This document shows positions 55,463 to 58,075 of a stretch of DNA of 64,000 nucleotides, in pieces; the stretch's first letter is position 1, and the number at the start of each line of letters is the position of its first letter. The notes below the pieces were generated by a model. The model was not told the origin of the DNA. It ran no database searches and saw only the letters and a program-made list of their open reading frames with translations. Source of the DNA: Escherichia coli (GTDB lineage: Bacteria > Pseudomonadota > Gammaproteobacteria > Enterobacterales > Enterobacteriaceae). A program made the position numbers and the translations under genes. The stretch lies in assembly GCF_030013595.1 (NCBI RefSeq), contig NZ_CP122768.1, one strand, 5' to 3'.

Positions 55463-58075
55463 GTATCCTGACCCGGTGGTTGCTTATCCCGCCGGTCAAC
55501 GCGCGGCTTATCGGGCGTTATCGCGATTATCGTCGTCACGGCGCGTCGGCTTTCAGCGCGACGCTCGGCTGTTTTTGGTTGATCCTGGCCTGGATTTTTA
55601 TTCCGCTGGAGCACCCGCGCTGGCAGCGTATTCGCGCAGAACATAAAAACCTGTATCCGCATATCAACGCCTCGCGTCCGCGTCCGCTGGACCCGGTCCG
55701 TTATCTCATTCAAACATGCTGGTTACTGATCGGTACATCGCGCAAAGAAACGCCGAAACCGCACAGGCGGACATTTTCAGGTCTGCAGAATATTCGTGGA
55801 CGTTACCATCAATGGATGAACGAGCTGCCTGAGCGCGTTAGCCATAAAACACAGCATCTCGATGAGAAAAAAGCTCGGTCATTTGAGCGCCGGGGCGCGG
55901 CGGTTGATCCTCGGTATCATCGTCACCTTCTCGCTGATTCTGGCGTTAATCTGCGTTACCCAGCCGTTTAACCCGCTGGCGCAGTTTATCTTCCTGATGC
56001 TGCTGTGGGGTGTAGCGCTGATCGTACGGCGGATGCCGGGGCGCTTCTCGGCGCTAATGTTGATTGTGCTGTCGCTGACCGTTTCTTGCCGTTATATCTG
56101 GTGGCGCTACACCTCTACGCTGAACTGGGACGATCCGGTCAGCCTGGTGTGCGGGCTTATTCTGCTCTTCGCTGAAACGTACGCGTGGATTGTGCTCGTG
56201 CTCGGCTACTTCCAGGTAGTATGGCCGCTGAATCGTCAGCCGGTGCCATTGCCGAAAGATATGTCGCTGTGGCCGTCGGTGGATATCTTTGTCCCGACTT
56301 ACAACGAAGATCTCAACGTGGTGAAAAATACCATTTACGCCTCGCTGGGTATCGACTGGCCGAAAGACAAACTGAACATCTGGATCCTTGATGACGGCGG
56401 CAGGGAAGAGTTTCGCCAGTTTGCGCAAAACGTGGGGGTGAAATATATCGCCCGTACCACTCATGAACATGCGAAAGCGGGCAACATCAACAATGCGCTG
56501 AAATATGCCAAAGGCGAGTTCGTGTCGATTTTCGACTGCGACCACGTACCAACGCGATCGTTCCTGCAAATGACCATGGGCTGGTTCCTGAAAGAAAAAC
56601 AACTGGCGATGATGCAGACGCCGCACCACTTCTTCTCACCGGACCCGTTTGAACGCAACCTGGGACGTTTCCGTAAAACACCTAACGAAGGCACGCTGTT
56701 CTATGGTCTGGTGCAGGATGGCAACGATATGTGGGACGCCACTTTCTTCTGCGGTTCCTGTGCGGTGATTCGCCGTAAGCCGCTGGATGAAATTGGCGGC
56801 ATTGCTGTCGAAACTGTGACTGAAGATGCGCATACTTCTCTGCGTTTGCACCGTCGTGGCTATACCTCCGCGTATATGCGTATTCCGCAGGCGGCGGGGC
56901 TGGCGACCGAAAGTCTGTCGGCGCATATCGGTCAGCGTATTCGCTGGGCGCGCGGGATGGTGCAAATCTTCCGTCTCGATAACCCGCTCACCGGTAAAGG
57001 GCTGAAGTTTGCTCAGCGGCTATGTTACGTCAACGCCATGTTCCACTTCTTGTCGGGCATTCCACGGCTGATCTTCCTGACTGCGCCGCTGGCGTTCCTG
57101 CTGCTTCATGCCTACATCATCTATGCGCCAGCGTTGATGATCGCCCTGTTCGTGCTGCCGCATATGATTCATGCCAGCCTGACCAACTCGAAGATCCAGG
57201 GCAAATATCGCCACTCTTTCTGGAGTGAAATCTACGAAACGGTGCTGGCGTGGTATATCGCACCACCGACGCTGGTGGCGCTGATTAACCCGCACAAAGG
57301 CAAATTTAACGTTACCGCCAAAGGTGGACTGGTGGAAGAAGAGTACGTCGACTGGGTGATCTCGCGGCCCTACATCTTCCTTGTTCTGCTCAACCTGGTG
57401 GGCGTTGCGGTAGGCATCTGGCGCTACTTCTATGGCCCGCCAACCGAGATGCTCACCGTGGTCGTCAGTATGGTGTGGGTATTCTACAACCTGATTGTTC
57501 TTGGCGGCGCAGTTGCGGTATCGGTAGAAAGCAAACAGGTACGCCGATCGCACCGCGTGGAGATGACGATGCCCGCGGCAATTGCCCGCGAAGATGGTCA
57601 CCTCTTCTCGTGTACCGTTCAGGATTTCTCCGACGGTGGTTTGGGGATCAAGATCAACGGTCAGGCGCAGATTCTGGAAGGGCAGAAAGTGAATCTGTTG
57701 CTTAAACGCGGTCAGCAGGAATACGTCTTCCCCACCCAGGTGGCGCGCGTGATGGGTAATGAAGTTGGGCTGAAATTAATGCCGCTCACCACCCAGCAAC
57801 ATATCGATTTTGTGCAGTGTACGTTTGCCCGTGCGGATACATGGGCGCTCTGGCAGGACAGCTACCCGGAAGATAAGCCGCTGGAAAGTCTGCTGGATAT
57901 TCTGAAGCTCGGCTTCCGTGGCTACCGCCATCTGGCGGAGTTTGCGCCTTCTTCGGTGAAGGGCATATTCCGTGTGCTGACTTCTCTGGTTTCCTGGGTT
58001 GTATCGTTTATTCCGCGCCGCCCGGAGCGGAGCGAAACGGCACAACCATCGGATCAGGCTTTGGCTCAACAATGA
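55459..58075 (+). pseudogene. bcsA: bcsA (cellulose synthase catalytic subunit) interrupted by a frameshift
   Basis: N-terminus MSILTRWLLIPPVNARLIGRY... (55459..55971, 170 aa) and the remaining 737 aa (55862..58075) are in different frames; the junction lies beside an A-run (GAGAAAAAAGCTCGG) near 55861-55880. Confidence 0.8.

Follow-up and report, generated by a model that had tools for sequence, protein, structure and literature searches.

Cellulose is a main matrix component of Escherichia coli biofilms and dampens immune recognition by the host, and its loss affects how colonies look and how the biofilm is structured and, for some clones, also virulence (PMC10881479). Lineage-specific inactivation of the bcs genes by indels, nonsense mutations, deletions and insertion sequence (IS) elements is a well-described type of event: of 76 common sequence types of E. 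coli, 74 contain truncating bcs mutations, which have often arisen independently within a clone, the bcsA frameshift delG556 defines clade 8 of sequence type 95 (ST95), and correction of the frameshift in bcsA restored cellulose production in strain MS7163 (PMC10881479). Here, we analyzed a stretch of 64,000 nucleotides from E. coli (contig NZ_CP122768.1 of assembly GCF_030013595.1; in the following, the window) in which bcsA, the gene for the catalytic subunit of cellulose synthase, is interrupted by an allele that is itself new.

The described systems closest to this locus share some of its properties and differ in others. In extraintestinal pathogenic E. coli of ST95 clade 8 (MS7163, S88), deletion of a G at nucleotide 556 leads to a stop at codon 186 (PMC10881479) and, as in the window, a small early deletion truncates the synthase before the catalytic core; in both cases, the lesion is lineage-specific and related lineages have independent bcs lesions. 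However, the ST95 lesion is a 1-bp loss at nucleotide 556 in an expanded clone, whereas the lesion in the window is a 2-bp loss at codon 139 in a single genome. In E. coli K-12, in which bcsQ contains a premature stop that was repaired in AR3110, there is likewise a single point lesion in bcsRQABZC with the remaining locus intact, by which cellulose production is abolished in the laboratory strains, and in K-12 as in the window the upstream nonsense or frameshift mutation is expected to be polar on the downstream genes; the K-12 lesion is in bcsQ, whereas in the window bcsQ is intact and bcsA is broken. Finally, frameshifts in bcsA of Shigella (S. flexneri, S. sonnei) are among the cases cited in PMC10881479 and, as in the window, they inactivate bcsA. 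Unlike Shigella, the window shares ~99.97% identity over 64 kb with pig E. coli of the commensal type and contains a single IS element. A Shigella origin of the window was considered and is ruled out by this identity to E. coli pig isolates.

The bcsA gene in the window comprises 2617 nucleotides in comparison to the 2619 nucleotides (872 codons) of the intact gene in strain C4, and its coding capacity is divided between two open reading frames (ORFs). The features that define the lesion are the following:

55459 to 58075, plus strand: bcsA pseudogene, identified with the NF008558 profile, with a single 2-nucleotide gap and repaired by GA.
55871 to 55874, plus strand: site of the 2-bp deletion in bcsA, from the alignments and a base-by-base readout.
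55459 to 55971, plus strand: N-terminal bcsA ORF of 170 amino acids (BcsA residues 1-138 and 32 out-of-frame residues), from the ORF list and NF008558.
55862 to 58075, plus strand: C-terminal bcsA ORF of 737 amino acids (MRKK followed by BcsA residues 140-872), from TIGR03030 and Pfam.

The N-terminal ORF extends from the ATG at 55459 to the TAA at 55969-55971 and starts with MSILTRWLLIPPVNARLIGRY, which is the start of BcsA, while the C-terminal ORF starts at the ATG at 55862, i.e. with an offset of 403 (3 × 134 + 1) that places it in the +1 frame. The first-pass annotation of this DNA had described bcsA as split over two frames that overlap at 55862-55971, as 2 nucleotides shorter than a gene for 872 amino acids and as leaving a BcsA fragment of ~138 amino acids; the ORF list contains the same two ORFs, the C4 gene has the assumed length, and the native frame ends after Lys138.

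Several lines of evidence identify the gene as bcsA. Against the BcsA equivalog model NF008558 of NCBIfam, the N-terminal ORF covers positions 1-140 and the C-terminal ORF positions 137-872, the latter scoring 1606 bits with a cut-off of 992. The C-terminal ORF also matches positions 5-710 of the 714 positions of the generic CelA model TIGR03030 (1032 bits, cut-off 699) and contains the Pfam domains Glycos_transf_2 (residues 142-312) and PilZ (residues 559-655), so that the complete conserved synthase core with the transmembrane region and the glycosyltransferase family 2 (GT2) and PilZ domains is contained in this ORF. The genomic context is of the E. coli type with bcsRQABZC divergent from bcsEFG, and is colinear with the annotated loci of C4 and of the pig isolate HCP5S3_I2. 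In total, all sequence and context tests point to bcsA with the exception of the uninterrupted frame of ~872 codons, and the gene is a bcsA pseudogene.

Alignments to intact bcsA with BLAST and MAFFT, which the first-pass annotation had proposed for pinpointing the indel and which were done against C4 and the close relatives, contain one 2-nucleotide gap. At this gap the reference reads GAGAAAAAAGAGCTCGG and the window, at 55864-55878, reads GAGAAAAAAGCTCGG. The deleted unit is one AG out of AAAAA[AG][AG]CTC with the gap at 55872/55873, its placement being ambiguous within 55871-55874; the junction strings at this site were AAAAAAGAGCTC for the undeleted sequence and AAAAAAGCTC for the deletion allele. 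The codons GAT GAG AAA AAA GAG CTC GGT of the reference become GAT GAG AAA AAA GCT CGG T in the window. The resulting allele is p.Glu139Alafs*33, i.e. the native frame is followed up to Lys138, codon 139 is changed to GCT, and 32 out-of-frame residues follow. In the first-pass annotation the junction had been placed at a short A-run; the lesion does adjoin a run of six A (A6, 55867-55872), but the run itself has the same length in the window and in the reference, and what was lost is an AG. The loss of one unit from AGAG would be a typical product of replication slippage. Insertion of GA after 55872 gives a protein identical to BcsA WP_000025850.1, which is the protein of C4 and also of the closest relative. 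Because the repaired gene encodes the wild-type protein, the pseudogene is without any further accumulated change and, given that the other bcs genes are open, the loss is recent.

The same strain carries a second lesion in the cellulose pathway, a 116-bp deletion in bcsE that is mechanistically different from the lesion in bcsA and had not been noted in the first-pass annotation:

52783 to 54238, minus strand: bcsE pseudogene with a 116-bp deletion and a frameshift; the remaining ORF is at 52967-54238.
53025 to 53033: bcsE deletion junction, where one of the two copies of the 9-bp direct repeat TCAACGCGG is left, from comparison with NZ_CM149870.1 (236655-236796) and with C4.

The 116 bp that are absent correspond to the stretch between the two copies of TCAACGCGG in the intact gene of the closest relative. 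The BcsE product consists of 423 amino acids, i.e. the native residues 1-405 and 18 out-of-frame residues, and it matches positions 1-406 of the 523 positions of NCBIfam NF011619 with 904 bits, which is below the cut-off of 929. What is lost are the R415TGD I-site for cyclic dimeric guanosine monophosphate (c-di-GMP), the GGDEF* domain past residue 405 and the C-terminal tail; the GGDEF* domain and the C-terminal tail of BcsE bind BcsRQ (PMC7439463). In E. coli O104:H4, which is cellulose-negative, a frameshift close to the C-terminus of bcsE that removes the last 78 amino acids has been named as the probable reason for this phenotype (PMC4287979). In O104:H4 (codon 448) and in the window alike, BcsE is truncated C-terminally by a frameshift, and the truncation in the window is the earlier one, after residue 405. 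However, the O104:H4 lesion is a 1-nucleotide insertion in a strain with intact bcsA, whereas in the window a 116-bp deletion between direct repeats is combined with a broken bcsA.

Neither allele was found in the collections that we searched. A 101-nucleotide query spanning the bcsA junction was compared to 5,426 complete RefSeq E. coli genomes, 5,318 of which contained a matching region; the junction allele was present in none of the 5,318, no match reached 99%, and the best match, at 98.1%, corresponds to the 2-nucleotide gap. Neither the JGI metagenome contigs nor the GTDB species genomes contained the exact bcsA junction string, and the exact bcsE junction string was absent from the JGI metagenome contigs. 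With the bcsE junction as query, the top matches were obtained only as two pieces 116 nucleotides apart. The truncated products of 170 and 737 amino acids and the 423-amino-acid BcsE product had no exact entry in a collection of 15 billion proteins. The codon-139 allele was likewise not found in parts of the supplementary tables of PMC10881479, in which allele detail is given for ST95 only, and the papers on E. coli C and O104:H4, which were checked for it, are not relevant to bcsA. Judged by these searches, both alleles look private to the strain.

An allele that is seen in no other sequence, at a gap site that adjoins an A6 run, could also be an artefact in which bcsA is really intact and the 2-nucleotide gap represents a sequencing or assembly consensus error beside a homopolymer. 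We used the rest of the 64-kb window as a control for assembly quality. The closest genomes, NZ_CM149870.1 (HCP5S3_I2) and NZ_CM149862.1, are those of pig faecal isolates from the UK, and the window is ~99.97% identical to them with ~20 single-nucleotide polymorphisms (SNPs) over 64 kb. In comparison to the relative, the differences are distributed as follows:

1 to 25000: 9 SNPs, no small indels.
25001 to 47000: 6 SNPs, no small indels.
46000 to 64000: 5 SNPs, one small indel, which is the bcsA gap.

Given that the bcsA gap is the sole small indel in 64 kb relative to a near-identical genome, the assembly is not indel-noisy. Moreover, the length of the A-run is unchanged and a 2-nucleotide loss from AGAG is unlike the usual 1-nucleotide homopolymer error, and bcsE has lost 116 bp cleanly between direct repeats in a separate event, consistent with a pathway that is truly decaying. 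An error is, therefore, an unlikely explanation, and as the leading explanation a homopolymer error is ruled out by the unchanged A6 run and the indel-free remainder of the window. Because two clean lesions are present in one pathway in a window that is otherwise free of small indels, real decay is favored over error, and we suggest that the bcsA lesion is probably a genuine, strain-private loss-of-function allele, with replication slippage as the most plausible cause of the loss of the AG.

The sister lineage has a different history at the same locus. In the closest relative, NZ_CM149870.1, bcsA and bcsE are intact; instead, this genome has a nonsense mutation in bcsQ, W120* (TGG to TAG at codon 120; G at 55068 in the window, A in the relative), as well as an IS5/ISKpn26 insertion at a CTAG corresponding to ~54268-54271 between bcsE and bcsR, ~30 bp upstream of the former and also upstream of the latter. 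The window lacks both the W120* mutation and the IS5/ISKpn26 insertion. HCP5S3_I2 thus resembles K-12 in having a nonsense codon in bcsQ, at W120 by codon count; we take the K-12 stop to lie at an early codon and, thus, to be different from that of HCP5S3_I2. Outside of the bcs locus, the O-acetyltransferase gene wecH is intact in the window, whereas the copy of the relative is broken by an IS10-like ISVsa5 with a 9-bp target duplication (25452-25460). This insertion is one of five disruptive differences between the window and the relative, and the other four are all in the bcs locus, which makes up ~20% of the window; if such differences were spread uniformly, four or more out of five would fall in bcs with a probability of ~0.007, a value that is post hoc and only indicative. 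In C4 and KE55 (99.3% identity), none of the bcs genes is flagged as a pseudogene in the annotation of the examined regions. The bcsA allele is, therefore, derived and lineage-specific, as close relatives have either an intact bcsA or different bcs lesions. With bcsA p.Glu139Alafs*33 and the 116-bp bcsE deletion, the window contains two cases of the truncating mutation in at least one bcs gene by which cellulose loss has been scored, and the pattern of lesions in the sister lineage fits the published convergent loss of cellulose.

The remaining bcs genes in the window are the following:

50919 to 52598, minus strand: bcsG, intact, downstream of the broken bcsE.
52595 to 52786, minus strand: bcsF, intact, downstream of the broken bcsE.
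54510 to 54698, plus strand: bcsR, intact, protein identical to that of C4.
54710 to 55462, plus strand: bcsQ, intact, protein identical to that of C4.
58086 to 60425, plus strand: bcsB, open, no internal stops.
60432 to 61538, plus strand: bcsZ, open, no internal stops.
61520 onward, plus strand: bcsC, cut by the end of the window at 64000, first 826 codons open.

All seven genes, bcsC over its 826 codons, have open reading frames that hardly differ from the C4 genes. The native bcsA start has a good Shine-Dalgarno (SD) sequence (anti-SD pairing of -6.9 kcal/mol), whereas the bcsB ATG at 58086, 10 nucleotides past the bcsA stop, is without an SD sequence (+0.5 kcal/mol), suggesting that translation of bcsB is probably coupled to that of bcsA. 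With this arrangement, the frameshift in bcsA may have a polar effect on bcsB. We propose the following sequence of effects: (i) ribosomes initiating at the native bcsA start would synthesize a product of 170 amino acids that contains only the cytosolic N-terminal domain and would terminate at 55969-55971, (ii) the next 2.1 kb encoding the transmembrane, GT2 and PilZ core would be left essentially untranslated, (iii) expression of BcsB would be lowered as translational coupling is lost, and (iv) bcsZ and bcsC would probably be lowered as well by Rho-dependent polarity. Combined with the truncation of BcsE, the bcsA frameshift predicts a strain that is cellulose-negative twice over. That no full-length BcsA and, hence, no cellulose is made, as the first-pass annotation had concluded, is most likely and the best-supported reading of the locus, with the phenotype deduced from the genes, and it gains strength from the deletion that inactivates bcsE as well.

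The position of the break allows for a different outcome. Residue 139 is where the enterobacterial N-terminal domain of ~140 residues borders on the conserved synthase core. This N-terminal domain is found only in BcsA of producers of phosphoethanolamine (pEtN) cellulose, is cytosolic and amphipathic, and recruits a BcsG trimer (PMC11379886, PMC11470070), while Rhodobacter BcsA naturally lacks it (PMC11379886). The frameshift could, therefore, have separated the BcsG-recruiting domain from a complete core, giving a split or leaky synthase that is still functional, with the core being made from the ATG at 55862, from a TTG at 55904 or by low-level recoding and some cellulose, probably unmodified, being produced. 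In agreement with such a scheme, the ATG inside GATGAG at 55862 is in frame with the core solely through the deletion, the TTG at 55904 is preceded by a weak SD-like GGGG (-5.0 kcal/mol), and both lesions strike parts specific to the E. coli-type machinery, i.e. bcsE and the N-terminal domain of BcsA, with bcsR, bcsQ, bcsB, bcsZ and bcsC intact. However, the ATG at 55862 is without an SD sequence (+1.2 kcal/mol), TTG codons are weak starts, and the two sites are within the translated upstream ORF; the first start past the upstream stop, the ATG at 55997, would give a product without the first transmembrane helix. Normal cellulose output and BcsA integrity have, moreover, been reported to require BcsE and BcsG (PMC4287979, PMC11470070). 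As for recoding, local folding at the bcsA junction is no better than that of shuffled sequence (z = +0.72), arguing against a stimulatory RNA structure, and the arrangement in two frames is not conserved. An A6 run is also too short for efficient transcriptional slippage. Based on the start signals, expression of the synthase core alone is unlikely, and we regard a functional split synthase as improbable. Even a little less probable, in our view, is remodeling of cellulose synthesis by the two lesions, in which the E. coli-type pEtN-cellulose machine would have been reduced to a minimal system of a Rhodobacter-like BcsA core with BcsB, BcsZ and BcsC that makes small amounts of unmodified cellulose, the core being translated from the ATG at 55862, the TTG at 55904 or through +1 slippage at AAA-AAG.

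The lysine-codon A-run at the junction (AAA AAA G) could also suggest a programmed ribosomal frameshift, i.e. a conserved recoding site that normally gives rise to full-length BcsA, and nothing else speaks for it. In all 5,318 E. coli genomes that contain the region the sequence is in frame, and the two-frame arrangement occurs in none of them. Also, a +1 or -2 shift would be needed and not the -1 shift that A-AAA-AAG promotes, the heptamer does not line up with the zero frame, and downstream structure is absent by the same folding comparison. This possibility is effectively refuted.

Returning to loss of cellulose synthesis through a genuine bcsA mutation, several points weigh against it. The mutation was called from assembled sequence alone and a consensus error at the single site in bcsA is conceivable; the lack of an independent sighting of the allele, be it in E. 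coli genomes, metagenome and species contigs or proteins, leaves it uncorroborated; and we infer all three of the phenotype, the downstream polarity and the slippage mechanism. It is also conceivable that a low level of active enzyme is made: BcsA lacking only Glu139 would result if tRNA-Lys slipped by +1 at AAA-AAG or if RNA polymerase lost one A of the A6 run.

Elsewhere in the window, two tandem ldr/rdlD type I toxin-antitoxin units are located at 50032-50916 (Rfam rdlD matches at 50128-50193 and 50611-50676, minus strand); in C4, four Ldr toxin genes are annotated at the same locus and the copy number of the ~480-bp repeat thus varies between strains. An IS3-family element, IS1397, lies between ysaA and avtA (9709-11057, plus strand) and is shared with the closest relative; its transposase has a programmed frameshift of its own, and an Rfam match to the small RNA ES036 (11110-11152), barely above the gathering score, is found at the edge of the element. 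The remaining Rfam matches are ordinary: a sok antitoxin beside hokA (29902-30053, plus strand), a cspA-type thermoregulator leader (30336-30763, minus strand) upstream of a cold-shock gene annotated as cspE, and naRNA4 (42130-42211, minus strand) near a tRNA-Pro gene (41960-42033).

For specialists, inactivation of bcsA in yet another lineage is unsurprising and it raises no new question. In practical terms, bcsA and bcsE should both be annotated as pseudogenes, and the strain should be treated as predicted cellulose-negative with hits in both genes. The closest relatives of the window are pig faecal isolates, which gives no grounds for claiming a link to invasive disease. The locus adds a small extra data point to the repeated, independent inactivation of cellulose synthesis in E. 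coli, in this case in a lineage that is close to isolates from the pig gut and not to invasive human clones.

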